Source of the DNA: Escherichia coli
GTDB taxonomy: Bacteria; Pseudomonadota; Gammaproteobacteria; Enterobacterales; Enterobacteriaceae
Strand: one strand, 5' to 3'
DNA: 64,000 nt
NCBI RefSeq assembly: GCF_051903065.1
Contig: NZ_CP178438.1
Positions within the stretch are counted from its first letter, which is position 1; every line of letters starts with the position of its first letter. The notes beneath the pieces were generated by a model that saw only the letters and a program-made list of their open reading frames with translations, searched no databases and was not told the origin of the DNA. Positions 1 to 54,706 of this stretch are shown one piece after another. The position numbers were made by a program, and so were the translations under genes.

Positions 1-638
1 AAAGAAAGCTTCCAACTTTTAGCCCAATGATGGATAGCATAACAATCTTTTGTTATATATCTATAAAGTAATTGTGATCGTTTGGCACTACCATAAGGGT
101 TATATGGATAAAAATATTTATCAGAGTATATTGTGATATCTTTAATAGTAGAAATATCTTGTGAATCTATTTTTTTTACACCATGTAAGTCCAAAATATT
201 TTTTAAAAGAAAAGGAATTGTTTGCATACCATTTGCTTTTATGACAGCTGCTTTTAGCTCTTGGAAAAGCCAAAATTTGGGTTCACAACCCAAAATACCA
301 CAACTAGGCGTATCAATATCTTCTTCGCCGATAAATGCAATATTTTTTCGCAATGCAGAAATATCCCGTACTAATTCCATATCAGTATCGAGATATATAC
401 CACCAAAACGATATAATACATCACATCGGATCAAATCTGCAGCAAATGCAAACTTTTTCCTTTGGATCATTTCTTCAACAAAATCATTCTGACCAAATTC
501 CTTTCTATAAGAATCCTCATTCCATAAATAGCAATCGTAATTTACAGCATGTTCTTTCCACGACTCCATACAATCTAAATATATTTTAGGGATTTCACTT
601 TTACCAAGCCAAATATAATGAATTATTGCTGGTATCAT
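1..638 (-). CDS. Glycosyltransferase (DXD sugar-transferase-like), 3-prime end truncated by window edge; O-antigen cluster
   Basis: Manual minus-strand translation from ATG at 636-638 (MIPAIIHYIWLGKSEIPKIY...GGIYLDTDMEL...) appears open to the window start; ATGA start/stop overlap with the upstream gene; low GC. Not in the ORF track, presumably because no stop lies in the window. Confidence 0.5.
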   Translation of the reverse strand, partial: MIPAIIHYIWLGKSEIPKIYLDCMESWKEHAVNYDCYLWNEDSYRKEFGQNDFVEEMIQRKKFAFAADLIRCDVLYRFGGIYLDTDMELVRDISALRKNIAFIGEEDIDTPSCGILGCEPKFWLFQELKAAVIKANGMQTIPFLLKNILDLHGVKKIDSQDISTIKDITIYSDKYFYPYNPYGSAKRSQLLYRYITKDCYAIHHWAKSWKLS

Positions 639-1501
639 AACGATTTTCCTTTAACTTTATTCTTGATTTTTACAAGAAAAAGACATGTAATAAATAAAAC
701 GAAAACAGTAAATTTTGTCTTTTTCTTTACAACTATTAGATTACTAATATTAAAAATGGGAATAAAATGAAAAACGGTTTGTTTAATGACATTAATACCA
801 AGACCTTTTAGATTCAAGTTATTGATAACAAAAGCCATCGTGCCATTGATGTTTTTCCGCAAAAGATCAGTATAATTAGAAGTTAAACCTCCTGGTAAAT
901 ATTCACTATAATAGATGATCTCATTGAAATATTTAAAGTAGCCATTTTCTAAAATTGAATTCCAAACCAATGCCTCAGTTATAAAATTTTCACCATCAAA
1001 AACAGGAAATTGATTTTTAAGTAAAGAATCACGTTTTATGATTAATGCTTTATCTCCCTTTGTACCTGCAAACTTTTCCAGAGAAATATTTTCAATTGTT
1101 TCCGCTTTACCTACAATCTCTTTTGTAGTTTTATACCCCCTCAGGAAAACCATCCCTTTACATTTATCATCAACAATTGCCTGGATTTTTTCATTGGCTA
1201 GAGCAATAGCGTTGGGCGTTAATATATCATCACTATCAACAATAAATATCCAGTTAAACGACGAAATTTCTATCCCTATATTTAAGGCTGTGTGTTTTCC
1301 ACCGTTCTTCTTATATCTATATATGATTTTAAATGGGGATGTCGACGCTATTTTGTCAATAACCTCTTTTAAATTATCAGTAGAACCATCATCAATTATC
1401 ACCCATTCAAAATCATAAGATTGTTGTGACATTAAGGATTCATATAATTCATAGACTAACAAAGCTCGATTGAATACAGGAGTAATTACTGAAATTGACA
1501 T
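635..1501 (-). CDS. Family 2 glycosyltransferase (O-antigen cluster)
   Basis: 288-aa ORF; N-terminal ITPVFNRA...VIIDDGSTD and later DSDD motif typical of GT-A/GT2 enzymes; low GC; overlaps neighbours as in an operon. Confidence 0.75.
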   Translation of the reverse strand: MSISVITPVFNRALLVYELYESLMSQQSYDFEWVIIDDGSTDNLKEVIDKIASTSPFKIIYRYKKNGGKHTALNIGIEISSFNWIFIVDSDDILTPNAIALANEKIQAIVDDKCKGMVFLRGYKTTKEIVGKAETIENISLEKFAGTKGDKALIIKRDSLLKNQFPVFDGENFITEALVWNSILENGYFKYFNEIIYYSEYLPGGLTSNYTDLLRKNINGTMAFVINNLNLKGLGINVIKQTVFHFIPIFNISNLIVVKKKTKFTVFVLFITCLFLVKIKNKVKGKSL

Positions 1502-2793
1502 CTAACCCTTCCAAAATCATTAATCAAACGCCATGGGAAAATAATATACTTCAAACTCTGTAATTGCATTTTAAACATATTTTTAGTTTTTGGTATAAAT
1601 ATAAAAATCAAAAAGTTAGCAATAAAATAAGAAAGCAATGATACAGAAGCAGCGCCAACCGCTCCATATTTTGGTATAACAATGATATTCAAAGTTATAT
1701 TCAAAATTGCAGCAATAATGGTTTTTATCACTTCTAAATTAATATAATTCTTACTAAATAACCATTTAGATGAAAATGATCCTAAAAAAACAAAAACACC
1801 ACTCCACATATGAACCATTAATACTTGCGCCGATAAATCCATATTATCGCCATATAGTATTTTTATAATTATAGGTGACAGAGCAATCATAATAATTGCA
1901 CCATATATAGAGATTACACTTACAACTCCGCATATCCATTTCAAAAAGATAAATGATTCTTCCTCTCCTATTTTTTCAAGCTGAACAATTTTTGGAAAAA
2001 AAGCGTTCGCTATCAAACCTCCACACATAAACCAGATGGCTGATAACCTAAGAGCTGCACTAAATGCCCCAGCCTCTTTTGTACCTGTAAGAGACTCTAA
2101 TAAGATAACATCACACTGTGTAAATAGTGATACACTAATAGTTGATACAATGAGTTTACTCCCCATAAAAAAATACATTTTGACTAATTCTAAATCAATC
2201 GTCCATTTTGCTGAATAAGGGAAATAGAATTTGTATATAGTAAAACTAAAAAGAGCTTGAATTAAATAAAAGAAAACATAAGCATAAAAGACATACCAAC
2301 CAAAATATATACAACACCAAAGATAACCATATGAAACGGCCACACTACTTAGAATTGTGATAGCACGATATTTTGATTCAACCAATGCCGAATAATGAAA
2401 AAATATTACTTTAGCATACAAGCTAAAAAAATTAGCAACGATTAATATCGCCACGAATATAAAAGCGAACGGTATATCATAGTAAAAATAAATAACAATG
2501 GTAATAAAAGCAGATGCATATAATAACAGTCCTAAAAACTGTAAGAATAATGCACATCCAATCTCAGTGCCCGTTGATGATGGATTTTCAACAATTCTTT
2601 TAACTACGACTATATCAATGCCAAATAAAAATAACGATAGTAATATTTGTGAGATATTCATTATCGTTGCCCAACTACCCAAGATATCTAACCCATAGAT
2701 TCTTTTGATAGAAGCAAAAAGTGACAGCTGAAATACCAGCATGAACACTCGGTCACTCAACAACCAAAATAGGTTACTTAAGTATTTTTTCAC
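1486..2793 (-). CDS. wzx: O-antigen flippase Wzx (polysaccharide transporter family)
   Basis: 435-aa highly hydrophobic multi-span protein in an O-antigen operon; size and composition typical of Wzx. Confidence 0.7.
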   Translation of the reverse strand: MKKYLSNLFWLLSDRVFMLVFQLSLFASIKRIYGLDILGSWATIMNISQILLSLFLFGIDIVVVKRIVENPSSTGTEIGCALFLQFLGLLLYASAFITIVIYFYYDIPFAFIFVAILIVANFFSLYAKVIFFHYSALVESKYRAITILSSVAVSYGYLWCCIYFGWYVFYAYVFFYLIQALFSFTIYKFYFPYSAKWTIDLELVKMYFFMGSKLIVSTISVSLFTQCDVILLESLTGTKEAGAFSAALRLSAIWFMCGGLIANAFFPKIVQLEKIGEEESFIFLKWICGVVSVISIYGAIIMIALSPIIIKILYGDNMDLSAQVLMVHMWSGVFVFLGSFSSKWLFSKNYINLEVIKTIIAAILNITLNIIVIPKYGAVGAASVSLLSYFIANFLIFIFIPKTKNMFKMQLQSLKYIIFPWRLINDFGRVRCQFQ

Positions 2794-2796
2794 GTG

Positions 2797-4023
2797 CTAG
2801 TTACCTTCATTGATATAGTTAACACCTTTATCAATTGCCTCCAATATATAATCAATCATACCATACACACCCTCAGTAAATGGATGATTATTTAGGAAAG
2901 TAAACATGTTATTCCCTAAAGACACATTATACATTAAATACAAAAAAGGCACTAAATTTACTACATATAAACAAATAAGTAGGGCATATTTACTCCTACC
3001 TTTTCTCTCAAAAGCTTTTAGATAAGGTAAAATAAAGTAGGGATAAAAACCAAAAATAATCATACCCAATCTATTCGAAAGTGCTGGGAAAGGTAATAAT
3101 ATTAAGAATAGAAAACACTCCTTACAAAATAAAATCTTATTAAAATCATCACATTTACTTCTCTTCCCTATCATTATAATAAAGCATATATTTACGACTG
3201 TAATGATAATATAATTTAACGGCAAACGTGTGAATTTATCGTTCCCAGAAACTGAAGTGAATTTCGATAATAGCACAGAATAAATTGGCGTATTATAAAC
3301 CACAAAAAACACAACTAAAAGTCCAATAAGAATAGAAAAAACAATTTTTGCATATGAGTATTTTTTTGAACCAAAGATCATATAAACTGCATATATAAAA
3401 ACATTAACAACTGCAGACATGTGAAAAAAAACACTCAATAAAAAAAAGATATATTTTTTAAATGAACGCTCATTTATAGCATACAGAAAAACAACCACAG
3501 ATAAAACCTGTCGAAGAAAATATGATGTAACTTCTATAAATCCTAAGTTAAAAAAGAAAAGCGATAATAAAAAAAGTTTATATTTTTTTTCAACATCTTT
3601 AAGAATCTTGGATAAAAAAAAGACGATCAGAAAATAAGTAGAAAGTAAAAATACTTCATCATTGCCATCTGAAATATACCCAATAAATTTCATGATGGCT
3701 AAAAACATAAATTCCAGCCCATCACCAAATCTTGAATAGCCAAAAACATCAATTAAATTATAATTTAACTCATGGTAAACATGAAGATACTCTGCAATAT
3801 CTCCAAATGGTTTTAGTGTGGAAAAAAAAATAATAATAAACACCAATAGTGCATAAAAATAAAAATTACGCAATACTGGGTGTAACAATGGCGAGAGGGC
3901 ACCAATAAATATCAATACAACAAGAGGGTAAAAGAATGTTGCCAATAATAACAAAGGAATAAAATATACAACACAGTTATTATTTGACAATGAATTTTCA
4001 TTGCTGTTTTTATAAATATTCAT
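2797..4023 (-). CDS. wzy: O-antigen polymerase Wzy (polytopic membrane protein)
   Basis: 408-aa very hydrophobic, very AT-rich ORF between wzx and a glycosyltransferase; assignment by context and composition only. Confidence 0.55.
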   Translation of the reverse strand: MNIYKNSNENSLSNNNCVVYFIPLLLLATFFYPLVVLIFIGALSPLLHPVLRNFYFYALLVFIIIFFSTLKPFGDIAEYLHVYHELNYNLIDVFGYSRFGDGLEFMFLAIMKFIGYISDGNDEVFLLSTYFLIVFFLSKILKDVEKKYKLFLLSLFFFNLGFIEVTSYFLRQVLSVVVFLYAINERSFKKYIFFLLSVFFHMSAVVNVFIYAVYMIFGSKKYSYAKIVFSILIGLLVVFFVVYNTPIYSVLLSKFTSVSGNDKFTRLPLNYIIITVVNICFIIMIGKRSKCDDFNKILFCKECFLFLILLPFPALSNRLGMIIFGFYPYFILPYLKAFERKGRSKYALLICLYVVNLVPFLYLMYNVSLGNNMFTFLNNHPFTEGVYGMIDYILEAIDKGVNYINEGN

Positions 4024-4825
4024 ATCGGGAATATCCTTTTAGCAGAATAAATAATGCAGCTATTTTTTTAATTCTGCCGCATTTTTTTTTAAAAAGAAAT
4101 TTTTTCACCCAGAATATGAAGATATATAGTAACCCTAAATATCTACCACCACAGCGTACAAAAATAGCACTTCTATCAGATAGGGCATCTGTTTCATTAT
4201 AAATTTTTTTACCAGAACTTTCTATTGGATGCACAGTAATTGTGACAGGTATAAAAATAATATTATTTTTTGTTTTCATAAGATCCGTAACAAAAATCGG
4301 TTCTTCACCCGCTTTATATCTAGCCCCCAATCCGAAACACTCATCAAACCAAACATTACATTCCTGTATTTGATTCACATTAAGGCACATTTCTATTGAA
4401 GAAATGTTAAATGCTGACAATCTATTTAGCCTTTTCCTCATTAGCGGATATTTTTTCCTTAGTCTTCCGTCTTGCGTACAACTTTGAATTTGATAATGAT
4501 ACTTGCCTCTATCTTCGATTATTCTATCTTTTAGTTCATAAAGTCCATTAACAAGGTAAGCGACATCATCATCACTTATAATCATATAATCAACGCTTTT
4601 TTGAAATGCAGTAGCCAATAAAATGTTTCTGCTTTTACTTAACCCTTTACAGTATGTCGTTATTATTATTACATTGTTTTTCTTACAAATATCCCCATAT
4701 TGTTTTTGCTTATCAGTCACTTGATGTGAAATTATTATTAAAAATTCATCTGGTATATTTTTTATTTTTTCCCAAACCTGATTTATTCCATTATTTAATG
4801 TTGATATACCTATAGCTATTTTCAT
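4010..4825 (-). CDS. Glycosyltransferase, first gene of the O-antigen operon
   Basis: 271-aa ORF with DDD-containing GT-A-like N-terminal half; immediately downstream (in transcription sense) of the JUMPstart/ops element. Confidence 0.6.
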   Translation of the reverse strand: MKIAIGISTLNNGINQVWEKIKNIPDEFLIIISHQVTDKQKQYGDICKKNNVIIITTYCKGLSKSRNILLATAFQKSVDYMIISDDDVAYLVNGLYELKDRIIEDRGKYHYQIQSCTQDGRLRKKYPLMRKRLNRLSAFNISSIEMCLNVNQIQECNVWFDECFGLGARYKAGEEPIFVTDLMKTKNNIIFIPVTITVHPIESSGKKIYNETDALSDRSAIFVRCGGRYLGLLYIFIFWVKKFLFKKKCGRIKKIAALFILLKGYSRYEYL

Positions 4826-4858
4826 CTCGGTTATCTATTTTAGACCTATGAATATAAA

Positions 4859-4871
4859 TAACGCTACCGCC
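4859..4871 (-). promoter_or_regulatory. ops element (RfaH-dependent antitermination site) within JUMPstart upstream of the O-antigen operon
   Basis: Plus strand reads acgctaccgcc, the reverse complement of GGCGGTAGCGT, followed by cctggcttt-agctacc JUMPstart-like sequence; lies in the 5-prime leader of the minus-strand operon. Confidence 0.7.
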
Positions 4872-5156
4872 CCTGGCTTTACAGCTACCAGAGCACTGCA
4901 TGCATGTCTACGATGTGACGAGCGTTACCCACTCGCGCTTAACTCGAAAAATTCAAACGCTAATTGTCTTACCAATCCGCTCTGGAAACAAGGAAAATCC
5001 TGGAAAACTTTGACTAAAATCCTATTGCTAACTCGTTGTTATTCTGATTGTTTATATAAAACAACGGCAGGAATATTCGCAACAAATTACTTTCGCCACG
5101 AATCCTCACTGCCGTTATAATTTTCTTATCAACCGTTACATCCGGTCAGATTTTCA

Positions 5157-6050
5157 TTATTCGCTTAACAGCTTCTCAATCCCTTTACGGAACTTCGCCC
5201 CTTCTTTCAGGTTGCGCAGTCCATACTTCACAAACGCCTGCATATAGCCCATTTTTTTACCGCAGTCGTAGCTTTCACCAGTCATCAGCATTGCATCAAC
5301 GGACTGTTTTTTCGCCAGTTCAGCAATGGCATCAGTCAGCTGAATACGCCCCCATGCACCAGGTTGAGTGCGTTCAAGTTCCGGCCAAATATCGGCAGAA
5401 AGCACATAGCGACCAACGGCCATGATGTCTGAGTCCAGCGTTTGTGGCTGATCCGGTTTTTCGATGAATTCAACAATGCGGCTGACTTTGCCTTCACGGT
5501 CCAGCGGTTCTTTGGTCTGAATGACGGAGTATTCAGAGAGGTCACCCGGCATACGTTTTGCCAGCACCTGGCTACGGCCCGTTTCATTGAAGCGCGCAAT
5601 CATGGCAGCAAGGTTGTAGCGCAGCGGGTCGGCGCTGGCGTCGTCGATCACTACGTCTGGCAGTACCACGACAAATGGGTTGTCGCCAATGGCGGGTCGT
5701 GCACATAAAATGGAGTGGCCTAAACCTAAAGGTTCGCCCTGACGCACGTTCATAATGGTCACGCCAGGCGGACAGATAGACTGCACTTCCGCCAGCAGTT
5801 GACGCTTCACGCGCTGTTCAAGGAGAGATTCTAATTCATAAGAGGTGTCGAAGTGGTTTTCGACCGCGTTCTTGGACGCGTGAGTTACCAGGAGGATTTC
5901 TTTGATCCCTGCAGCCACAATCTCGTCAACAATGTACTGAATCATTGGCTTGTCGACGATCGGTAGCATCTCTTTGGGTATCGCCTTAGTGGCTGGCAAC
6001 ATATGCATCCCAAGACCCGCTACCGGTATAACTGCTTTTAAATTCGTCAT
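5157..6050 (-). CDS. galF: UTP-glucose-1-phosphate uridylyltransferase paralog GalF
   Basis: 297-aa ORF with the GalU/GalF N-terminal motif ([39 protein letters not shown]); position between the O-antigen and colanic-acid clusters. Confidence 0.92.
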
Positions 6051-6292
6051 TATTTTCCTACCTCTAAGTGGCTGATAGTGCGTAAATTATTGCCATAGAT
6101 TAGCCAAACGGTATGGCTATATACCAAAGCTTAGTTCCGCATAACTTTGATTAAACCTTGCGATAACACTACACACCATCAGCATCTGGGTTACTCGGAT
6201 TACTCGGAATTCCGCATACTGATAATTTAATCAGTACCTCTTTCCGAATAATCGTAGTCCAACCTGGTCCTTTTTTCTCTGACTCTTCTGCA

Positions 6293-7288
6293 TTACTCAG
6301 AAACAAACGTTATGTCGTCTTTTTTGGCATGGACGAATTCATACTGCAGAGTTCGATCCAGACCTTGCGACAGCGTATACGGTGCCACAAAACCTGAAGA
6401 ATGCACTTTCGTTGCGTCAAACTGTGTTGTTGCGCAGAATTTTTTCACGCGCACTGAGCTGACAGCGTATTTTTTGCCCGTAATTTTGCTCAGGATATCA
6501 AAGCAATATCCACCCAGCATTCCTAGTGGGTAAGGCAAGTGCATAGAAGGGATCTTTTTGTTCAGGCTTTGTTCAACTTCAGCAACCAACTGGTTCATGT
6601 TCAAGTCTGGCTTATCAACGTAGTTATAAACCTCATAACCTGCGGCAACATTCTTCAGTTTGTACTTGATAAACTCAACAATGTTTCCAACATACGCCAT
6701 GGACTTATAGTTAGTCCCTGCCCCCACCATCATAAACTTACCGCCAGCGATCTGTTTCAGCAAGTTATAGACGTTACCGCGGTTGCGTTCACCGAAGATA
6801 ACGGTAGGACGGATGATGGTTAATGAACGTTCTGTTGGTGCTTTGTTATACCATTCACGCAGCACTTCCTCTGCCTGCCACTTACTTTTGCCGTAGTGGT
6901 TGAAAGGATCGTGTGGATGGTTTTCGTCAGGGTTGTGTTTGTTCAAACCATAAACAGCAACGGAACTGGTAAAGATGATATTTTTAACGCCTTTTTTTTC
7001 CATGGCCGCCAACACATTGCGGGTACCCTGAACGTTGACATCATAATAGAGAGAAGTAGGGCTGACGTCATCGCGGTGTTCCGCTGCAAGTAGTACAACA
7101 GTGTCAAAACCGGCTAACGCCTGGTCGAGTGCCTGTTGATCACGAACATCGCCAATCTGTGTGATTTCTGGATAAAAGTGGCTCTGCTGTTTGTCCAGGT
7201 TCTTGATATTAAAGTCAGCAATTGCCGTTTCAAGTAGTCGGGTTCCTACGAATCCGGAAGCTCCTATGAGCAAAACGTTATCGTTCAT
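6293..7288 (-). CDS. gne: NAD-dependent UDP-N-acetylglucosamine 4-epimerase (Gne-type)
   Basis: 331-aa short-chain dehydrogenase/epimerase (MNDNVLLIGASGFVGTRLLE..., YGKSK active-site motif); position between galF and wcaM as in strains with GalNAc-containing O-antigens. Confidence 0.8.
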   Translation of the reverse strand: MNDNVLLIGASGFVGTRLLETAIADFNIKNLDKQQSHFYPEITQIGDVRDQQALDQALAGFDTVVLLAAEHRDDVSPTSLYYDVNVQGTRNVLAAMEKKGVKNIIFTSSVAVYGLNKHNPDENHPHDPFNHYGKSKWQAEEVLREWYNKAPTERSLTIIRPTVIFGERNRGNVYNLLKQIAGGKFMMVGAGTNYKSMAYVGNIVEFIKYKLKNVAAGYEVYNYVDKPDLNMNQLVAEVEQSLNKKIPSMHLPYPLGMLGGYCFDILSKITGKKYAVSSVRVKKFCATTQFDATKVHSSGFVAPYTLSQGLDRTLQYEFVHAKKDDITFVSE

Positions 7289-7445
7289 AAATCACTTTAG
7301 TCTGGTTGTTACGTAAGAAACACAAGATAAAGATGAGTACCTTCCCTGAGTAGTCAATGCTGCCCAGCCCCAGCTTTAACAGTTAGTGTGAGGATTATAA
7401 TCTTTTAGAACATTATATCCAGTAAGTTTATGAATGGTCGCAAAT

Positions 7446-8840
7446 CTACTCCCTCCGTTCCGGCAATCTAAAGTTAATCTTTTCCACATTAATAATATGG
7501 TGATTAACTCTGTCGATATCGACGGAGCTTTGCCCTTTTTCATTCACCGCATGAACATTTGCAAGAGATAGCAGTGTTTCTTTTTTCGCCATAAAGACGC
7601 CGCGAACGTCTTTGCGCATGTCAAAGTTCATGCTCAATGCGGGTCCAACAGAGGATTCCTGCATCACCTTGATATTACGCATAAAAAGATGTTGCGGTTT
7701 ATTGTGTAGCTCAAGCGACGCACGCTTCATCTCAATGTTAGTCAGTGCCACAAAGGAGACGGCATTCCCGGCGGAGATTTGGATGCCGCGCAATTTATAA
7801 GCAAGATGGGTGTTATCCAGTTGAATATTATTCACTCGGAAATTTTGCGGTATCGAGAGATATTTGCCTTTAATTACCCCATAGCCGATTAACATCCCGG
7901 CGCTATTAATCATTTCAATATTATCAATCACAAAATTGTCACAACCGTAAATAGCGACCGTCGCGTTATCAATACCTGCTTTCTTACTGAAATCCGGCGT
8001 GATATTGCGGGCTTTGATATTACGAATAACAAAATGTTTACCATTTTCAACATGGATCAACTGCCGACAATCCGATCCCGTGATATTCGCCACGACAAAG
8101 TTTTTCACTGCCTGATCTTCTGGGTAATTATTATCGTAAGTGCTTCCCGCAAGGCCTATGCCGATGCCCCAGTTGATTTTGCCGTTAGTACAGTTGATGC
8201 GCTCGATGACATGGTCGGAGATCAAAATATCACTGTCGTTAATTGCCACGTTCCATTCAATGGCGTCGCCCTGTAAGTCGCTGAACTTACAATTGGTGAT
8301 GTTGGCACCGATAATCTGGTTATGAAATCCCTGGCGTAAGATGGCGTAATTAGCGTGGCTAACGGTCAGGTTATCGATGGTCAGGTTGCGCATGACCCGT
8401 TTGTTTTTGCCGCCGATATAAATCTGCGTTACCGGACCAAAGCCGCTCATCGCCAGCCCTTTGATGGTGCAGTCAGAGCCACGCACATCCAGGGTGATGT
8501 TATGCATACTGCCGCCCTCCTCCCCTGTCACCTGGCTGCCGTCCTGTAAGACAAATCGCCCTCTGCCGTTGCCGCGCAGGCTTCCAAGGATGTGTAAAAT
8601 TTTACCGGGAGGGATAAAGATGCCGGTGTTGATATTGTCACAAACCAATCCGCCAGGCACGACGACCGTATGCCCTTCGCTGAAGGCTTGTTTAAATGAG
8701 GCGATCCAGTCGTGAGGGTTGTAGTCGTTAATGTTAACGCTTTGTCGGGCGGGAAGTGCGCGAGCAAAAGGGGTATGGAGGAAGGCAAGCGCGGAGCTTG
8801 CCGTCAGGAAGGTGCGTCGGGAGAGTTTTTTAAATGGCAT
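7446..8840 (-). CDS. wcaM: Colanic acid biosynthesis protein WcaM
   Basis: 464-aa ORF with signal-peptide-like N-terminus; last gene of the wca cluster; length matches K-12 WcaM. Confidence 0.9.
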
Positions 8841-30454: not shown

Positions 30455-30466
30455 CACGCTACCGCC
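30455..30466 (-). promoter_or_regulatory. ops element in the JUMPstart of the colanic-acid operon leader
   Basis: Plus strand cacgctaccgcc is the reverse complement of GGCGGTAGCGTG, followed by cctggctttttagctacc JUMPstart-like sequence, about 180 bp upstream of wza. Confidence 0.75.
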
Positions 30467-30934: not shown

Positions 30935-32518
30935 ATGGAATGGATTGCCGATCCGTCTATCTGGGCCGGGTTAATCACGCTGATTGTGATCGAACTGGTC
31001 CTCGGCATTGATAACCTAGTCTTTATTGCCATCCTCGCCGAAAAACTACCGCCGAAGCAGCGCGACCGCGCACGGGTTACCGGGCTGTTGCTGGCGATGT
31101 TAATGCGCCTGTTACTGCTGGCGTCAATCTCCTGGCTGGTCACCCTGACTCAACCGCTATTCAGCTTTCGCTCGTTTACCTTTAGCGCCCGCGACTTAAT
31201 CATGCTGTTTGGTGGTTTCTTCTTGTTGTTCAAAGCCACGATGGAGCTGAACGAACGGCTGGAAGGGAAAGACAGCAATAACCCCACGCAACGCAAAGGT
31301 GCGAAGTTCTGGGGCGTGGTGACACAAATTGTGGTACTGGACGCCATCTTCTCACTCGACTCGGTGATTACAGCCGTCGGGATGGTCGACCATTTACTGG
31401 TCATGATGGCCGCCGTGGTTATCGCTATCAGCCTGATGTTGATGGCCAGCAAGCCGTTAACGCAATTTGTTAACAGTCACCCGACCATCGTTATTCTCTG
31501 CTTAAGCTTCCTGTTGATGATTGGCTTTAGCCTGGTGGCGGAAGGTTTCGGCTTCGTCATTCCGAAAGGCTACCTGTACGCTGCCATTGGTTTCTCGGTG
31601 ATGATCGAGGCGCTCAATCAGTTGGCTATCTTTAACCGGCGACGTTTTCTTTCCGCTAACCAGACGCTGCGCCAGCGGACTACCGAAGCGGTAATGCGCC
31701 TGCTTAGCGGGCAAAAAGAAGATGCGGAACTGGACGCCGAAACCGCGTCCATGCTGGTGGATCATGGTAACCAGCAGATCTTTAATCCGCAGGAACGGCG
31801 GATGATTGAGCGGGTACTTAATCTTAACCAGCGTACCGTCAGCAGCATTATGACGTCGCGCCACGATATTGAGCATATCGATCTCAACGCGCCGGAAGAA
31901 GAAATCCGCCAGTTGCTGGAGCGAAATCAGCATACGCGGCTGGTGGTTACCGACGGTGATGACGCAGAAGATTTGCTCGGTGTTGTTCACGTTATCGACC
32001 TGCTACAACAGTCTCTGCGCGGCGAACCGCTCAACCTGCGGGTGTTGATTCGCCAGCCGCTGGTGTTCCCGGAAACCTTGCCGTTGTTACCTGCCCTGGA
32101 GCAGTTCCGTAATGCCCGCACGCACTTTGCTTTTGTGGTGGATGAGTTTGGCTCGGTGGAAGGGATTGTGACATTAAGTGACGTCACTGAAACCATTGCC
32201 GGTAACTTACCGAACGAAGTGGAAGAGATCGACGCCCGCCATGATATTCAGAAGAATGCGGACGGTTCCTGGACGGCGAATGGTCATATGCCGCTGGAAG
32301 ATCTGGTGCAATATGTGCCGCTGCCGCTGGATGAAAAACGTGAATATCACACCATTGCCGGGCTGTTGATGGAGTATTTGCAGCGTATTCCAAAACCTGG
32401 CGAAGAAGTTCAGGTAGGGGATTATTTGCTTAAAACGTTGCAGGTAGAAAGCCATCGCGTGCAGAAGGTGCAGATTATACCGCTGCGTAAGGATGGCGAG
32501 ATGGAGTACGAGGTGTGA
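30935..32518 (+). CDS. yegH: Inner-membrane protein YegH (TerC-family membrane domain plus CBS/CorC-type domains)
   Basis: Track ORF is 549 aa; likely start [13 protein letters not shown]... (527 aa). Confidence 0.88.
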
Positions 32519-32780: not shown

Positions 32781-33806
32781 ATGAAAGTATCAACTCTTGG
32801 TATCGACCTGGCAAAGAACGTTTTTCAGCTTCATGGTGTCGATCATGAAGGCCATACTATTTTGCGTAAAAAGCTCACCCGGGCTAAGTTTGTTCAGTTT
32901 GTGATTCAACTGGAACCTTGTCTGATTGGCATGGAAGCCTGCTCATCCAGTCATTATTTTGCGCGATTATTCACCCGCTATGGTCATGAGGTAAAACTCA
33001 TACCTCCGCAGTATGTGAAGCCTTATGTGAAAACGAACAAGACGGATGCAGCAGATGCTGAAGCAATCTGCGAAGCGGTAACCCGTCCGAATATGCGTTT
33101 TGTTCAGATAAAAAACGAAGAGCAGCAGGCCGTTTTAGCGTTACACACTGAACGGGGAATACTTATCCGTGAGCGGATTGCCTGTGCCAATAGTTTAAGA
33201 GCCACACTTGCTGAGTTTGGTATTACGATTGCGGCCGGACAAAGCCATTTAACCCGTGAGCTGCCAGCCATTCTGGAGGATAGCGAAAATGGTTTATCTC
33301 CCTTTGTCAGAACCAGCATCTACAGACAGTCTAAACATATCCGGGAACTTGAAGAACAAGTTAAACAGGTAGAAGAAGCTCTGGCCTCCTGGTATAGAAC
33401 GCAGGAAGCCTGCCAGAGAATGGCCAAAATCCCGGGGGTTGGCATGCTAACGGCCACTTATGTGGTAGCAGCAGTGGGTAATGCCCGACAATTCAGTACC
33501 GCAAAGCAGTTCGCTTCATGGCTGGGGCTGACACCAAAGGAACATTCCAGCGGCGGGAAACAGCAACTGGGAGGGATCAGCAAACGTGGAGATGGATATT
33601 TCCGATACCTGCTGGTTCACGGCGCACGCGCACTTACCGCCTGGGTCAACCGAAACGGCGCGGTTGAGGAGAATTCCTGGCTTCAGGGACTCCTTGAGCG
33701 GAAGCACTACAATGTAGCTGTTGTCGCCATGGCGGCAAAAACAGCGAGGATCATGTGGTCAATGTTGTCACACAATACTGAATATCAACCTCGGCAGCTC
33801 GCCTGA
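32781..33806 (+). CDS. IS110-family transposase/recombinase (DEDD N-terminal domain plus Transposase_20 C-terminal domain)
   Basis: 341-aa ORF: N-terminal MKVSTLGIDLAKNVFQLHGVD and C-terminal IPGVGMLTA...GLTPKEHSSGGKQQLGGISKRGDGYFR motifs characteristic of IS110-family recombinases. Confidence 0.85.
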   Translation: MKVSTLGIDLAKNVFQLHGVDHEGHTILRKKLTRAKFVQFVIQLEPCLIGMEACSSSHYFARLFTRYGHEVKLIPPQYVKPYVKTNKTDAADAEAICEAVTRPNMRFVQIKNEEQQAVLALHTERGILIRERIACANSLRATLAEFGITIAAGQSHLTRELPAILEDSENGLSPFVRTSIYRQSKHIRELEEQVKQVEEALASWYRTQEACQRMAKIPGVGMLTATYVVAAVGNARQFSTAKQFASWLGLTPKEHSSGGKQQLGGISKRGDGYFRYLLVHGARALTAWVNRNGAVEENSWLQGLLERKHYNVAVVAMAAKTARIMWSMLSHNTEYQPRQLA

Positions 33807-47961: not shown

Positions 47962-48324
47962 ATGTTAAAGCTATTTGCAAAGTACACCTCGATTGGTGTG
48001 CTGAACACACTTATACACTGGGTGGTTTTTGGTGTATGTATCTATGCCGCGCATACCAATCAGGCTCTGGCAAACTTCTCAGGTTTCGTTGTGGCTGTGA
48101 GCTTTAGCTTCTTCGCGAATGCAAAATTCACATTCAAAGCATCGACTACAACGATGCGCTACATGTTATATGTCGGGTTCATGGGAACACTGAGTGCTAC
48201 TGTTGGATGGGCTGCTGATAAGTGCTCGCTTCCTCCAATTATCACTCTTATCACCTTCTCCGCCATCAGCCTGGTGTGCGGTTTCGTCTATTCAAAGTTC
48301 ATTGTCTTTAGGGATGCGAAATGA
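47962..48324 (+). CDS. gtrA: Bactoprenol-linked glucose translocase GtrA
   Basis: 120-aa small 4-TM protein of the GtrA family; start codon of the next gene overlaps its stop. Confidence 0.85.
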
Positions 48325-49241
48325 AAATATCTCTGATTGTTCCTGTCTTCAATGAAGAAGATGCGATACCAATTTTCTATAAAACGGTACGTGAATTCGA
48401 AGAGTTGAAGCCTTATGACGTCGAAATTGTATTCATAAATGACGGAAGCAAAGACGCCACGGAATCAATTATTAACGTTCTGGCTGTTTCAGATCCGCTA
48501 GTTGTTCCGCTGTCATTTACACGAAACTTTGGTAAAGAACCAGCATTGTTTGCAGGGTTAGACCATGCAACGGGCGATGCTGTTATTCCTATTGATGTTG
48601 ACCTGCAAGACCCGATTGAGGTTATTCCTCATCTGATTGAAAAGTGGCAGGCAGGTGCCGATATGGTGCTGGCAAAACGTTCAGATCGTTCAACTGATGG
48701 AAGATTAAAACGGAAAACCGCTGAGTGGTTCTATAAGCTTCACAATAAAATAAGCAATCCAAAGATTGAAGAGAATGTCGGCGATTTCCGCCTGATGTCT
48801 CGAGAGGTGGTAGAAAATATCAAACTACTGCCAGAGCGTAACCTGTTTATGAAAGGCGTTTTATCTTGGGTTGGCGGTAAGACGGATGTTGTTGAATACA
48901 TCCGTGCTGAACGCGTTGCCGGAAGCACAAAATTCAATGGCTGGAAGCTATGGAACCTGGCGCTTGAGGGAATTACAAGTTTCTCGACCTTCCCCTTACG
49001 CGTGTGGACTTACATCGGCCTACTTGTTGCGGGACTCTCGTTCCTTTACGGGGTGTGGATGATTTTCGACACATTGGTGTTCGGTAATGCTGTCCGCGGA
49101 TATCCTTCTATTCTTGTATCTATTCTCTTTTTAGGTGGCATTCAGTTAATTGGTATTGGGGTGCTGGGAGAATACATCGGCAGAATTTACGTAGAAGTTA
49201 AAAATCGTCCTAGATATGTACTTAAAAAAATAAAAGGTTAG
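48321..49241 (+). CDS. gtrB: Bactoprenol glucosyltransferase GtrB (GT2)
   Basis: 306-aa ORF with GT2 N-terminus ([11 protein letters not shown]...FINDGSKD) and two C-terminal TM segments. Confidence 0.9.
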
Positions 49242-49246
49242 AGAAT

Positions 49247-50623
49247 ATGCGCATTTCAAAAAATGAAAAATACCTTTCATTGATTATGATAGCATTTTAC
49301 TTGCCATTTTTATTATCTGATTTACCTTTTAGGGACGATCTAAGCAGGACTTATTGGGGTTTTGTTGGGTTGTCTCAATTAGGTAGACCATTGGCAGACA
49401 TTGTTTATAGTTTGGTTGGATTTGGCTATGAGGGTGTTAACCTCAGCCCTATGCCTAAAATTATAGCGCTATTAATAATATTATCGTCTGCGATATTTTC
49501 ATACAGAACGCTATTCAACTCAATAGGAGCAACCGGGTTACTCTCTTTATCTATTTTCTTTGCAAATCCATTTATTATTCAAAATTTTGCATATCAGTAC
49601 GACTGTTTTCCAATGGCTTTATCTATTTTATTGGCGACATTATCTGTATTATATAGACCAAGATCAAGCTATTTTTATTTTCTTAGCGCATCATTTTTAT
49701 TAACTAGCGCAATATCACTTTATCAAGCATCTATATTTATTGCGGCATCTTTATATTTATGTAAGATCACTATTTATTTCGTTAACGATAGAAATCGCAG
49801 AGATGTTTTTATAGAATGCATGCTTACTCTTTTGTCTTCTTTTTTCTCTATTGCATGTTACATGGTGATTTTACTTTTTGTAGAAAATGGCGTGTCAAAA
49901 CGAGCTAGCATTACAGGGCCAAGTGGCGTTATTAGCAATATCGAGTTCCTTTTGGATAGGTTAAATAGCCTTTACCACTCGGTTTATATTTTTTTTATTA
50001 TTTTGTCATTAGTATTAATATTCTCTCTCTTGAGGATTTTTATCCTAAAAAGATATATCAATTTATGCGTGATATTACTAATACTTGTTGCGCTGCTAGT
50101 CTCTTCCCTACTCCCATCTGTCATCCTTAAGGAAGGGTTCGCCGGACCAAGAGTTTTAATGTCTATTTGTTCGGTATTTATATTTATATCTATCATTGCA
50201 ACCGGAAAAGAAAAATACGTATACGCCATGGTGTTATCTGTTTTAATGATGCATTCCATGTCTATTTCATACGCATTTTCAGGTGACATTAAGGCACAAT
50301 ACGATAGATACTCGATGATATCATCTCTTGTTTATAAAGATATTGATAATTACGTGTCGTCAAATACAGCAAAAATATACATTTCTTGCAAATCAACCCC
50401 ATCACAAAGAGAGTACGTTTTCTATAAATTCAACAATCACATAGCATGGCTCAACCCAGAAGAGGCTTGGGCTATCAGGTTTTTCATAAGAAATAATGGC
50501 GAGAGCAGGGTGGTGCACTCATGGGATGAATGCTTTGATATAAATGGAGGTAAGATCGTTAAAGAAAATGCATTTTATAAAATGGTTGAAAATAAAAATT
50601 CTTACTATTTCATAATGAAATAA
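49247..50623 (+). CDS. Serotype-specific O-antigen glucosyltransferase (GtrC-type polytopic membrane protein)
   Basis: 458-aa very AT-rich, highly hydrophobic ORF immediately after gtrAB; family call is by context and composition. Confidence 0.6.
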   Translation: MRISKNEKYLSLIMIAFYLPFLLSDLPFRDDLSRTYWGFVGLSQLGRPLADIVYSLVGFGYEGVNLSPMPKIIALLIILSSAIFSYRTLFNSIGATGLLSLSIFFANPFIIQNFAYQYDCFPMALSILLATLSVLYRPRSSYFYFLSASFLLTSAISLYQASIFIAASLYLCKITIYFVNDRNRRDVFIECMLTLLSSFFSIACYMVILLFVENGVSKRASITGPSGVISNIEFLLDRLNSLYHSVYIFFIILSLVLIFSLLRIFILKRYINLCVILLILVALLVSSLLPSVILKEGFAGPRVLMSICSVFIFISIIATGKEKYVYAMVLSVLMMHSMSISYAFSGDIKAQYDRYSMISSLVYKDIDNYVSSNTAKIYISCKSTPSQREYVFYKFNNHIAWLNPEEAWAIRFFIRNNGESRVVHSWDECFDINGGKIVKENAFYKMVENKNSYYFIMK

Positions 50624-50849: not shown

Positions 50850-53381
50850 CTATATAACGGATAGCGTTCTTATGTCATTGCTAGCTGGTGATGCCATAAC
50901 TATCTGTGTTACGTTAGCGCCAGACACCGTATACGTCAGAATTACGTTACCAACGGCTCCTATATTAAAGTTTTGTTTAGCTCCTGAGGTACCTATAGCT
51001 CTGGCATTCGTTAAAGTATACGTGCTTCCCGCAGTGAATCCTGTAGCAATTACAAATTGTTGACCAACTTTAAAAGGAACTGTCATTGTTGCGGATGTTG
51101 ACTCGACAGTAGCAAACGGCAGGCCAGGCTGTTTAACCCCCGTCACATCCCAGAACTCACAGTTACGCACCAATGCTCGACCAATTAAATCGCGAGTTAC
51201 AGGGAATGTTGTCTGGTCCTGTGATAAGAATGCTCCAACAATTTGCACGTTATCGAGCGTAATATCGTGTACTGTGGCCCCATCTATAGGACTTAACGTT
51301 GGTGATGCACTCCATAATTTACCACCCTTCATTTTGATACTTACAGGCCCGTTAGGGTCTGTCCCTCTAAAAGCGCGAATACTCTCAAATTTGCAATCTG
51401 TAAATTCATAGCTGCCGCGTTGGTTAGTTTCGAACAATGTATACGCCTCACCTGACACTCCGTGTCTTACATCACTGGCAACAACGCGCGGATTATGGCG
51501 GAATGATGCAGACGTGACAGAGAAAAATGGCGCGCAGACATCGTTAATAAGAATGTCTGTTGTATAACGCCCTGTAACAGCGCTCTCAGAGTCACTCATA
51601 TCCGAATATAGCGCTTTGAAGCGGGAGAAGTCTATGTTTAGACCTATTCCTGCACTTTTTGGTAATTGTCCAAAATCAAGCCCGTCAATAACAATTTTCT
51701 TAGGGAAATAAAGGGTGTTATCTCGAGCTACAGTTATTAATGTACCCGGATAAGTCAAGACGAAACCTGGATACATTTTAACATCTTTCAAGGTAACATT
51801 ATTGAATAACGTGGGGCTTATAGGCGACCCGCTACTAGGCCCTTGCCCAGCAGTAACAGCTGCGTTTATGATACCATTTCCGGGTGCGCCGCTGCGCAGG
51901 CCAGTTAACTTAATATTCTCCATGTATAAATCACCATCGAAGCCCCCCCCCAGCGTCAGAGCGAGTCGAAATAATATTACCAGGCTTATATGGTGAAGCA
52001 TTAAATATTGAATTGGTTACATACAAATCCCCGATACCAGAAGCGACGACACCATAAGTCCCAATATTACAGTCATTTATCTTTAAGTAGTTTTGGAAAG
52101 GTCTGTGGAAATCAATTCGACTAAGATCGCATCTTTCAAACCTTATATTGGCGCAATTATTGCTGCCTGTTGCCCCCCAGCCTTTACCATTTGCCGTTGC
52201 GTTTTTGATAGTGACATCCATAGAGTTAGATAGGGTTAAGGCGTATGCGTAGCTATCAACACCATCTATTAAGGCGTTTGCTATGGCTGGCGTGTATAAA
52301 CCATCAACTGTAACATCATAGCTTTCGTTAATTTCTATCCTGATATCATTAAAGTTTTGCGTTATCGGTCTGTTAATAAATGTCGTATTAACCAAGCGAA
52401 CTCGTGATGCTTGATTAATATAAATAATTCGATAATTCTTTGTAAGACTTTCGTCTATAGTCAATCCCTTAAGGTCTGCACATCTTTGCGTATTTTAAGT
52501 GCTTTAATTGATGTTGCGTTAGTTCCTAGGGCGTACTTAAGCGGGTTTTCAATGTATCCACGGTTATATACCCTGTTGAAATCTACGCGAGTTTGATTAA
52601 CGCCATCGAAAATAAACATAGGTTGAGATGTCGATAACTGAATGAAGCAACCGTCAAGGTCGGTATTAGAAGCCAAACCATCAAGATAGTTGCTACCTAT
52701 GTCGCGAGAGCCACTGGTGGACGTATTAACTCCATTAACTGGAGCCGAACCAGAACCGTATGTAACAGGGGCGACAGGCTGGCTAATAACAATTTGCCCT
52801 TTCCATGTAGCCGATGGTTTAAGCACACACCCGGTTAAATCCACATTTAAACTTTTAATATCAAGATAAGTATCACCATCTAGTAGAAAAGTTCCGTCAG
52901 ATTGCCTAACGTCTAAATTATTTGAATAAGCATAGTTCAGTGCCTTAGCTATGGCGGGAGCGTCATTTGTTACTCCATCACCAATAGCGCCAAACTCCTT
53001 CAACGTTACCCAGTATTTTACTTTCTCCAAGCTCTTTTGATATTGATCTGGGTCGTACTTCAGCACATTAGGAAAATAGAACTGCTGCGCACCATATGCA
53101 TCATAAACAGCCATAGAGTGGCCTTGCACAGTTACGAACTTGGCAATCTGTCCGTTATATACCGGATATCCAGCAGCGTTAATGATGATTGGTTGTGAAA
53201 CAGGAACGTGAGAACCATCCTCATTCTCCACATAAATCTGAATCTGGTTTTCAGGATTTACCGGGTCAGTGTCAATTTTTCCTATATAAATTTTGCCATT
53301 GGCAACCGCTTTAAAAGAACGTGCCATAGTGAAGAGTTGCGAAGGCATGCTTACCACAACATTTGCGGTGATATCTGTCAT
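50850..53381 (-). pseudogene. P22-like phage tailspike gene disrupted by at least two frameshifts
   Basis: Three consecutive minus-strand ORFs (52461-53381, 51931-52464, 50850-52001). The first begins [43 protein letters not shown], recognised from memory as the P22 gp9 head-binding domain; the others are beta-helix-like. One frame junction sits on a 9-nt homopolymer. Confidence 0.75.
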
Positions 53382-53505
53382 TTAATTTGCTCCAGATTCA
53401 AGGAATCGCCGCAGCATGGCTACGGTGAATTTTGTGCATAAAAAACCCAGCCGAAGCTGGGTCGTTGCGTTGGTTATCTGTAAGTAGTTATGTGCTTAGG
53501 TAATT

Positions 53506-54706
53506 TGTATTAGCTCAGACCTGATCTGACAGTTACCGGTTATTTATACAGGTATCTGTCAGATTACATCCGGCTTAAATTTTTCTCGGCCCAGATGCGC
53601 TTTCCATCAAGTAACGTTTCCATTGGCGTCCGCCCATTGCGCATTTTTCCCTGATGGGTTCGTTCATTATTATAGTGAGCCAGCCACTCATCAAGATCCG
53701 ATTGCAATGTATCGAGAGCTCCATACAACTTTTTACGGAACGTCACCTGATAAAATTCGTTCAGTATCGTCTTATGGAACCGCTCGCAGATGCCATTTGT
53801 CTGCGGTGACATCGCTTTAGTTTTCGTGTGGTCTATATCATTTATTGCCAGATATAGCTGGTAGTCATGCTGTTCCACCTTACCGCAGTACTCTGTTCCT
53901 CTGTCGGTCAGTATTCTCAGCATTGGCAGGTTTTGCGATTCGTAAAATGGCAACACACGATCATTCAGCAGGTCAGCAGCCGTGATCGGTGTTTTGGTTA
54001 CATACAGTTTACAGTGTGCGACCTTCGAGTAGGTGTCAACGAACGTTTGCTGATAAATGCGTCCGACTCCTTTCAGATTACCCACGTAGAACGTATCCTG
54101 AGAGCCCAGATAACCGGGATGTGCGGTTTCGATTTCACCACACGCTTCGTCATCGCTGGCTTTACGCTCCAGAACGACTATCTGTGCTTCTGTCAGCTCG
54201 ATACCGTCACGGGCTACTTTTTCCTCCAGTGCTTTCAGCCGCTTTTTGAAGTTCTCAAGGTTATGCCGCAGCCAGACAGAACGTACACCCCTTCCTGAGA
54301 TGAAGACACCTTGCTTACGTAGCTCATTGCTGGTCCGGTGCTGGCCATGCGCAGGGTACGCGATGGCATAATCAACAACGGCCCGCTCAGTTGCATCATC
54401 GGTACGATTTTTTAGATTGGGCGTTCGTCGAGTGCGGTTAATCAGTGCATCCACCCCACCTTCATCAGCCAGTTCGCGATAACGGTAAAACGTATCACGC
54501 GAGACGCCCATGATTTTGCAGGCCTTCGAAACATTGCGGAGTTCTTCAGCCAGATTGAGCAAACCGGCTTTGTGTTTGATGACGGGATTGTTAGTATGAA
54601 GCATGAGAGTTACCTCGTGTTTTGTATAAGGATTCGACACCCATATCAAAACCGGTAACTCTCAACCTTTCAAGGCTCAGTGTCAGATCAAGTCGCGACT
54701 AATACA
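53506..54706 (-). mobile_element. IS481-like insertion sequence (about 1.2 kb) with imperfect terminal inverted repeats
   Basis: Ends tgtattagctcagacctgatctgacagttaccggtt (53506-53541) and aaccggtaact...gtcagatcaagtcgcgactaataca (54650-54706) are inverted repeats with a 20-bp insertion in the right copy; encloses one transposase gene. Confidence 0.6.
53564..54604 (-). CDS. DDE transposase (integrase-core/rve domain with N-terminal HTH), IS481-family-like
   Basis: Track ORF is 361 aa from a TTG; likely ATG start at 54604 (MLHTNNPVIKHK..., 346 aa); HTH-like N-terminus and integrase-core-like central region. Confidence 0.75.
   Translation of the reverse strand: MLHTNNPVIKHKAGLLNLAEELRNVSKACKIMGVSRDTFYRYRELADEGGVDALINRTRRTPNLKNRTDDATERAVVDYAIAYPAHGQHRTSNELRKQGVFISGRGVRSVWLRHNLENFKKRLKALEEKVARDGIELTEAQIVVLERKASDDEACGEIETAHPGYLGSQDTFYVGNLKGVGRIYQQTFVDTYSKVAHCKLYVTKTPITAADLLNDRVLPFYESQNLPMLRILTDRGTEYCGKVEQHDYQLYLAINDIDHTKTKAMSPQTNGICERFHKTILNEFYQVTFRKKLYGALDTLQSDLDEWLAHYNNERTHQGKMRNGRTPMETLLDGKRIWAEKNLSRM

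Follow-up and report, generated by a model that had tools for sequence, protein, structure and literature searches.

The Escherichia coli O38 O-antigen locus: a galF-proximal cluster segment with a separately placed gnu, a predicted Gne-type epimerase beyond the window start, and a distant gtrABC module

The window analyzed here, a 64-kb stretch (64,000 nucleotides) of Escherichia coli DNA, opens within an O-antigen gene cluster. All of the genes that had been described for positions 1 to 7288 were present and all lie on the minus strand, i.e., three glycosyltransferase genes, wzx, wzy, the flanking gene galF, and an epimerase gene between galF and wcaM (Table 1). The first gene of the cluster is preceded by a JUMPstart leader with an exact ops match, and a scan for promoters and terminators across positions 4700 to 7600 gave counts within the shuffled expectation. 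The GT32 gene is cut by the window start; its complete form (L001, 8952-9638) encodes 228 amino acids (aa) and scores 47.7 bits against PF04488. NCBIfam scans of Wzx, Wzy, and the GT32 protein returned no match.

Table 1. Features of the O-antigen locus and of the gtr island in window coordinates
Feature	Position	Strand	Basis or remark
GT32-family glycosyltransferase gene, 5' 212 codons	1..638	-	Cut by window start; frame open from ATG at 638 to window edge
GT2-family glycosyltransferase gene, 288 aa	635..1501	-	PF00535, 87.3 bits; 286/288 identical to NCTC9038 protein
wzx, O-unit flippase, O38 type, 435 aa	1486..2793	-	PF01943 (Polysacc_synt), 32.4 bits, above cut-off; RefSeq "O38 family O-antigen flippase"
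wzy, O-antigen polymerase, O38 type, 408 aa	2797..4023	-	PF14897 (EpsG), 54.7 bits; RefSeq "O38 family O-antigen polymerase"
ORF1, first operon gene, predicted divergent GT-A (GT2-like) glycosyltransferase, 271 aa	4010..4825	-	RefSeq "hypothetical protein"
JUMPstart element with ops site GGCGGTAG (4864-4871), 5' leader of the O-antigen operon	4860..4898	-	Rfam RF01707, 58.8 bits (gathering score 35)
galF, conserved flanking gene	5157..6050	-	TIGR01105, 688 bits; GC 51%
gnu (formerly gne), predicted Und-PP-GlcNAc 4-epimerase, SDR, 331 aa	6293..7288	-	Between galF and wcaM
wcaM, final colanic acid operon gene, locus boundary	7446..8840	-	Annotation of near-identical record
gtrA, gtrB, gtrC (120, 306, 458 aa), putative O-antigen glucosylation module in decayed prophage end	47962..50623	+	PF04138, PF00535, PF14264

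Positions 1 to 7288 very probably contain two thirds of a known gene cluster, namely, the galF-proximal part of that for the E. coli O38 O antigen, together with a separately placed gnu, and the system appears to be a standard Wzx/Wzy-dependent one, as originally predicted. The O38 designation derives from the RefSeq annotation and from sequence identity to NCBI entries. Of 5426 complete genomes, only 12 had full-length matches to the cluster, among them the O38 reference NCTC9038, with 99.4 to 100% nucleotide identity to window positions 1 to 5150, and RefSeq labels wzx and wzy as "O38 family" in all 12 of them. Comparison of these two genes with known types, which had been proposed as a check, identified serogroup-specific O38 alleles (Wzx 433/435 and Wzy 403/408 identical to the NCTC9038 proteins). 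The O38 cluster is reported to be common to E. coli O38 and Shigella dysenteriae type 8 (PMC4379981; PMC8795385), which are also reported to cross-agglutinate (PMC8795385), and it has been reported in Escherichia marmotae too (PMC6650469). S. dysenteriae type 8 probably contains Glc, GlcA, and GalNAc, a composition on which none of the conclusions here are based.

The first gene of the operon, ORF1, scores only 17.8 bits against the Pfam GT2 model, which is under the cut-off and suggested a protein other than a glycosyltransferase. This was ruled out by its homologues, motif, and fold: homologues at 28 to 48% identity bear PF00535, the DDD motif (D85-D86-D87) is invariant, and the solved structures closest to the AlphaFold model (pLDDT 94.8) are those of TarP and of the fucosyltransferase WrtF, at an E value of about 1e-10. 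By homology and modeled fold, ORF1 is thus a GT-A glycosyltransferase, a description that may replace the label "hypothetical protein" which RefSeq gives to the first O38 cluster gene.

About 43 kb away from the cluster, gtrA, gtrB, and gtrC are contiguous on one strand, and gtrC (49247-50623) matches phrog_4829 (GtrC-like). All three family hits exceed the cut-off, and the set corresponds to the makeup of a GtrABC module, in which GtrA is a flippase, GtrB a GT2 bactoprenol glucosyltransferase, and GtrC the serotype-specific component. The order of the three genes beside a tailspike gene and their Pfam and PHROG families are those expected from P22/SfX-type gtrABC modules; unlike in these, the prophage is decayed and located between ibs toxins and mdtA instead of at a tRNA gene. 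Identity to the GtrC proteins of sequenced phages reaches at most about 34% in partial alignments. The module offers a possible second, independent route to altering the O antigen, in agreement with the two layers of O-antigen specification that had been proposed for the window, and could add a glucose side branch to the O38 O antigen in the periplasm, an effect predicted from the gene families. The strongest competing explanation, which we rate at somewhat less than an even chance, is that the island is no more than the inert relic of a prophage and that the window carries one functional O-antigen layer instead of two. The neighboring tail-fibre gene is indeed in fragments and abutted by an IS481 element, and the restriction of the gtrC allele to six O38 genomes (the only full-length matches to the module among 5426 genomes) could be clonal, given that their O-antigen clusters are 99.9 to 100% identical. 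Against decay of the module itself, all three genes are full length with family scores above the cut-off, and the gtrC protein cluster comprises 47 member sequences, one full-length member of which occurs on 164 E. coli contigs, which suggests maintenance of the gene.

In the complete-genome set, the gtrC allele is confined to one O38 sublineage, and the other O38 lineage has near-identical gtrAB genes with a different gtrC. A protein search for gtrC gave no match from S. dysenteriae 8 or E. marmotae, which would have favored O38 specificity; it returned only E. coli matches and a relative from Enterobacter hormaechei (90% identical). It is tentatively conceivable, albeit rather doubtful, that this allele recognizes specifically the O38 repeat unit, creating an unrecognized glucosylated O38 subtype. 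In that case, at least two chemically different O antigens would exist within E. coli O38, and the broken tailspike gene beside the module would be the relic of an O38-specific phage.

With respect to the sugar composition of the O unit, the part of the cluster within the window contains no nucleotide-sugar gene, as had been stated. The genes beyond the window start were read from the near-identical public genome NZ_AP045789.1 (E. coli 23CRST027) and not from the window itself; this genome has 4 mismatches to the whole 64-kb window and 1 mismatch across the 14150 bases compared. According to its annotated record and family scans, the complete gene order is galF, ORF1, wzy, wzx, GT2, GT32, galE-like, GT2, gnd, ugd, and wzzB, which places the cluster between galF and gnd. 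A galE-like gene of 343 aa (window positions -50 to -1081) starts only 50 bases outside the window and is followed by a further GT2 gene (-1084 to -1830), the fourth glycosyltransferase gene, and by gnd 137 bases further on. The original prediction of a cluster with nothing but glycosyltransferase genes, wzx, and wzy therefore does not hold for the cluster as a whole, and the rest of the operon towards gnd, where a search for sugar genes had been recommended, contains what had been named in advance as a refutation, here a galE-family gene with a cysteine at the position of Tyr299. Since the cluster genes overlap (e.g., by 4 bases between the GT32 gene and the GT2 gene upstream of it) or are separated by no more than 3 bases, and since their GC content is uniformly low (27 to 35%, including 34.5% for the galE-like gene, versus 51% for galF and gnd), they form a single operon.

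The gene upstream of galF, which had been taken for a gne, is gnu as judged from its product, 330 of whose 331 residues are identical to those of the O157:H7 protein at the same wcaM-galF locus (Z3206; GlcNAc-P-P-undecaprenol 4-epimerase, Rush et al. 2010), with K99 for N99 as the single substitution. RefSeq names the product N-acetyl-alpha-D-glucosaminyl-diphospho-undecaprenol 4-epimerase, and its score against the GalE model is only 71.5 bits (cut-off 262). Its location outside the O-unit operon and upstream of galF is that of the clade D epimerase Gnu of Cunneen et al. (2013). The distinction between gnu and gne has been described (PMC3682973; PMC7685785), and in the older literature the gene upstream of galF appears as gne, a UDP-GalNAc 4-epimerase (e.g., in PMC4379981). 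Since the O157 counterpart acts on Und-PP-GlcNAc and showed no activity on UDP-GlcNAc (Rush et al. 2010, summarized in PMC3682973), Gnu is most plausibly not a nucleotide-sugar enzyme; it would set the first sugar of the unit and would not supply UDP-GalNAc. Rather than occurring in all strains whatever their O antigen, the gene is carried by only 1322 of the 5426 complete genomes; according to the literature, its presence or absence matches the O-antigen structure for 104 of 115 serogroups, and in 10 cases gnu or gne occurs without being predicted by the structure (PMC3682973). The epimerase upstream of galF predicts GalNAc in the O unit, so that this part of the original proposal is supported. 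[quoted passage not shown] A displaced housekeeping galE was ruled out by this low identity, by the GC content of the gene, and by its spacing of 1 to 2 bases to the flanking glycosyltransferase genes, and it is the same low-GC, operon-embedded character that sets the gene apart from E. coli galE. In an ungapped alignment over 337 residues, the protein has Cys where E. coli GalE has Tyr299, as is also the case in the Y299C mutant of the E. coli enzyme and in human GALE, which are UDP-hexose 4-epimerases with a Cys gatekeeper. The best match among solved structures is this Y299C mutant (1LRK, 392.6 bits versus 387.5 to 388 for the wild-type enzyme). [quoted passage not shown] The Cys gatekeeper is thus a Gne-type signature that predicts, and does not prove, acceptance of UDP-GlcNAc; the main product of the enzyme could be UDP-Gal.

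An unlikely alternative is that the gene encodes an ordinary GalE and that GalNAc occurs only once in the unit, via Gnu. In its favor, GalE is the name given to the protein by RefSeq and NCBIfam, and enzymes with a Cys gatekeeper, human GALE among them, use both substrate pairs. Cunneen et al. advise that clade A genes be called galE by default, with gne kept for cases that give grounds for it (PMC3682973). Against this explanation stand the housekeeping galE that E. coli already possesses and the cysteine, which is expected to widen the pocket as in the Y299C mutant. The combination of gnu upstream with gne in the cluster also speaks against it, since this arrangement has been documented for O units that contain two GalNAc residues, e.g., in E. 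coli O86 (PMC3682973). The same two-epimerase layout (gne1 = gnu upstream of galF, gne2 = gne in the cluster) is present in O38, with the difference that gne is the first gene after galF in O86, whereas the clade A GalE/Gne homologue is the sixth of seven in O38. Finally, an O38 unit for which housekeeping nucleotide sugars suffice, so that the cluster needs no sugar gene of its own and the upstream "gne" supplies UDP-GalNAc, is highly improbable in spite of the older label of that gene (PMC4379981), the lack of a sugar-pathway gene in the visible part, and the at least 49 serogroups without pathway gene sets, which make such clusters common (PMC4379981), given the Cys299-containing galE/gne-type gene in the operon and the near identity of the upstream protein to an enzyme reported inactive on UDP-GlcNAc. 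What stands of this original claim is that multi-gene sugar pathway sets (rml, man/fcl, fnl, and similar) are absent anywhere between galF and gnd; the galE-like gene within the operon contradicts the remainder.

In the pathway that we infer from established knowledge of the protein families, including all enzymatic steps and the donor and acceptor specificities, WecA, which is encoded elsewhere, would form Und-PP-GlcNAc, and Gnu would epimerize it to Und-PP-GalNAc, so that the unit would begin with GalNAc. Four glycosyltransferases, three of them encoded in the window and the fourth, which resembles WbdN of O157, just outside, would extend the unit from UDP-sugars. The Gne-type GalE homologue would supply UDP-GalNAc (and possibly UDP-Gal) for a later residue, and the remaining donors would come from the housekeeping genes galU/galF and from ugd, which adjoins gnd. 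The unit would be flipped by Wzx and polymerized by Wzy, with the chain length set by WzzB, and RfaH acting at the JUMPstart/ops leader would carry transcription through the low-GC operon.

The O38 O-antigen cluster, the gnu/gne distinction, and gtr modules have all been published, and the finding is an ordinary one that matters little beyond correct annotation; it does illustrate that a cluster cut by the edge of a window cannot be called free of pathway genes. Compared with NCTC9038, the gene order is the same and nothing of substance differs, except that, owing to three 1-base indels, the NCTC9038 assembly has a split GT32 gene and a truncated last GT2 gene, both of which are intact in the genome that matches the window.

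The O-antigen cluster at the start of the window corresponds to that of serogroup O38. Window positions 1-5150 are matched over their full length, at 99.4-100% identity, in 12 of 5426 complete E. coli genomes; RefSeq names both wzx and wzy "O38 family" in all 12 of them, and the O38 reference strain NCTC9038 is among them. The cluster is already catalogued, its components all come from well-described families, and it is not unusual. All 184 O-serogroup clusters were sequenced by Iguchi et al. (PMC4379981), who found at least 49 serogroups without nucleotide-sugar gene sets, noted gne directly outside the galF-gnd interval, and matched the cluster of Shigella dysenteriae type 8 to that of O38, a correspondence confirmed in PMC8795385. 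The same cluster is present in E. marmotae with 99.4% identity (PMC6650469). In PMC7685785, structures are given as known for all serogroups but five, and O38 lies outside those five. Three 1-base indels affect the O38 cluster of the NCTC9038 assembly (locus L002, 7100-14150): the GT32 gene is split, and the last GT2 gene is cut short. They reflect either mistakes in the assembly or genuine pseudogenes. In strain GS04 (NZ_CP079772.1), the cluster carries an IS1 insertion.

Features of the O-antigen region and the gtr block; negative positions lie beyond the window start and were read from NZ_AP045789.1 (locus L001)
Feature	Position	Strand	Evidence or remark
wcaM	7446-8840	minus	annotation of matching record
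SDR-family 4-epimerase (gnu)	6293-7288	minus	
galF	5157-6050	minus	TIGR01105, 688 bits
JUMPstart with exact ops site	4860-4898	minus	Rfam RF01707, 58.8 bits (gathering score 35)
ORF1, first cluster gene	4010-4825	minus	271 aa
wzy	2797-4023	minus	PF14897, 54.7 bits
wzx	1486-2793	minus	PF01943, 32.4 bits
GT2 glycosyltransferase	635-1501	minus	PF00535, 87.3 bits
GT32 glycosyltransferase	638 to window edge	minus	open frame; full length 228 aa, PF04488
galE-family gene	-50 to -1081		343 aa; starts one base past GT32 end
GT2 gene	-1084 to -1830		248 aa
gtrAB	47962-49241	plus	gtrA, 120 aa, PF04138; gtrB, 306 aa, PF00535
gtrC	49247-50623	plus	458 aa, PF14264, phrog_4829
Tail-fibre/tailspike fragments	50850-51923, 51931-52464	minus	phrog_16586; both "hypothetical" in RefSeq
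Head-binding-domain pseudogene	53033-53381	minus	
IS481-family transposase	53564-54604	minus	

The cluster genes overlap or are spaced by at most 3 bases, and their GC content is 27-35%, compared with 51% in galF and gnd; tight packing and low GC are the usual mark of E. coli O-antigen operons. The original observation that the visible part holds at least three glycosyltransferases, Wzx, and Wzy is borne out, with ORF1 counted as one of the glycosyltransferases. RefSeq lists ORF1 as a "hypothetical protein", and its match to Pfam GT2, at 17.8 bits, is under the cut-off. PF00535 is present in homologues of 28-48% identity, 27 sequences all keep the DDD motif of residues 85-87, and the AlphaFold model (pLDDT 94.8, pTM 0.91), which ends in a pair of long C-terminal helices, resembles GT-A enzymes, among them the WrtF fucosyltransferase and TarP (E about 1e-10). 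Judged by homologues, motif, and predicted fold, ORF1 is a GT-A glycosyltransferase, and the count of at least three is therefore right. Two more exact ops sites (GGCGGTAG) are located on the minus strand at 30459-30466 and 31046-31053 and lie upstream of wza, heading the colanic acid operon; the whole window contains five exact ops matches, versus 1.3 expected by chance.

The window start cuts the cluster off, and the sequence beyond it contradicts the idea of a cluster without any dedicated sugar gene. NZ_AP045789.1 (strain 23CRST027, from human faeces, Ecuador) is collinear with the window and nearly identical to it, with 1 mismatch in the first 14150 bases and 3 in the other 50000, and could therefore be used to read this region. 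In this record, GT32 runs to window position -48, after which come a galE-family gene and a further GT2 gene, then a 137-base gap and gnd, ugd, and wzzB. The galE-family gene is a sugar-biosynthesis gene of the sort that had been named beforehand as refuting the original interpretation. It belongs to the operon, given its GC content of 34.5% and its close packing between glycosyltransferase genes. Its product scores 437 bits against the GalE equivalog model and shares 52% identity with E. coli GalE, and the gap-free alignment of 337 residues places a Cys at the position of Tyr299. Its top solved-structure match is the engineered Y299C mutant 1LRK (392.6 bits), compared with 387.5-388 bits for the wild type. 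According to evidence summarised by Cunneen et al. (PMC3682973), acceptance of UDP-GlcNAc is set by active-site size, and one substitution can switch it. On this evidence, we take the gene to be what O-antigen nomenclature now calls gne, with a predicted activity. The adjacent 248-aa GT2 protein has a full-length identity of 37% with the glycosyltransferase encoded first in the O157 cluster, which we take to be WbdN. WbdN transfers glucose onto GalNAc-PP-Und, and the similarity suggests that the 248-aa protein may be the second-sugar transferase acting on Und-PP-GalNAc.

The epimerase gene upstream of galF had been called gne, a label that is out of date, since its 331-aa product agrees in 330 of 331 residues with the protein that O157:H7 encodes at this locus, now Gnu. 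The NCTC9038 and O157:H7 copies share one RefSeq protein accession, and the RefSeq product is N-acetyl-alpha-D-glucosaminyl-diphospho-undecaprenol 4-epimerase. As reported from Rush et al. 2010 in PMC3682973 and PMC7685785, the O157 enzyme is inactive on UDP-GlcNAc and converts WecA-made Und-PP-GlcNAc to Und-PP-GalNAc, and its clade was renamed Gnu for that reason. The gene is not universal (1322 of 5426 complete genomes), and its presence or absence is as the structure predicts in 104 of 115 serogroups, as summarised from Cunneen et al. (PMC3682973). Since gnu does not occur irrespective of O-antigen composition, the prediction that the O unit contains GalNAc stands and can be narrowed: the O38 unit should begin with GalNAc. 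O38 shows the same layout as O86, for which PMC3682973 gives gnu upstream of galF, gne inside the cluster, and two GalNAc residues.

As far as gene content goes, with gtrA, gtrB, and gtrC all intact, it is fair to speak of two independent layers of O-antigen specification in the window; functionally, the second layer is a putative one. The complete gtrABC sequence was found in only 6 of the 5426 complete genomes, all six of them O38 with a 99.9-100% identical cluster; gtr-positive O38 strains include 23CRST027 and ECNB21-M121. Three genomes of a second O38 lineage (BL12, GS04, and BHD6; cluster identity 99.4%) have a gtrAB that is 99.4% identical to the copy in the window; in BL12, it lies inside an intS prophage adjoining a tRNA-Arg gene, and the third gene differs. 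Public protein data place the GtrC of the window in E. coli only, including one record named O38:H39, and the nearest relative outside E. coli, from Enterobacter hormaechei, is 90% identical. Clonal linkage and specificity for O38 would each account for this distribution of gtrC. A second gtrAB-like locus is present elsewhere on the chromosome in all six genomes with the gtr island (two places per record), and strain 23CRST027 may thus have a further module for O-antigen modification.

Downstream of gtrC are the tail fragments, the pseudogene, and the transposase, the whole block having the ibs toxins on one side and mdtA on the other; no tRNA gene is annotated in the surroundings of 50850-54604. 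The two tail-fibre fragments are consecutive parts of one gene, covering positions 432-609 and 618-956 of the phrog_16586 profile. We interpret the gtr block as the degraded end of a prophage resembling P22. Another mobile element, an IS110-family transposase gene, is located at 32781-33806 between yegH and asmA.
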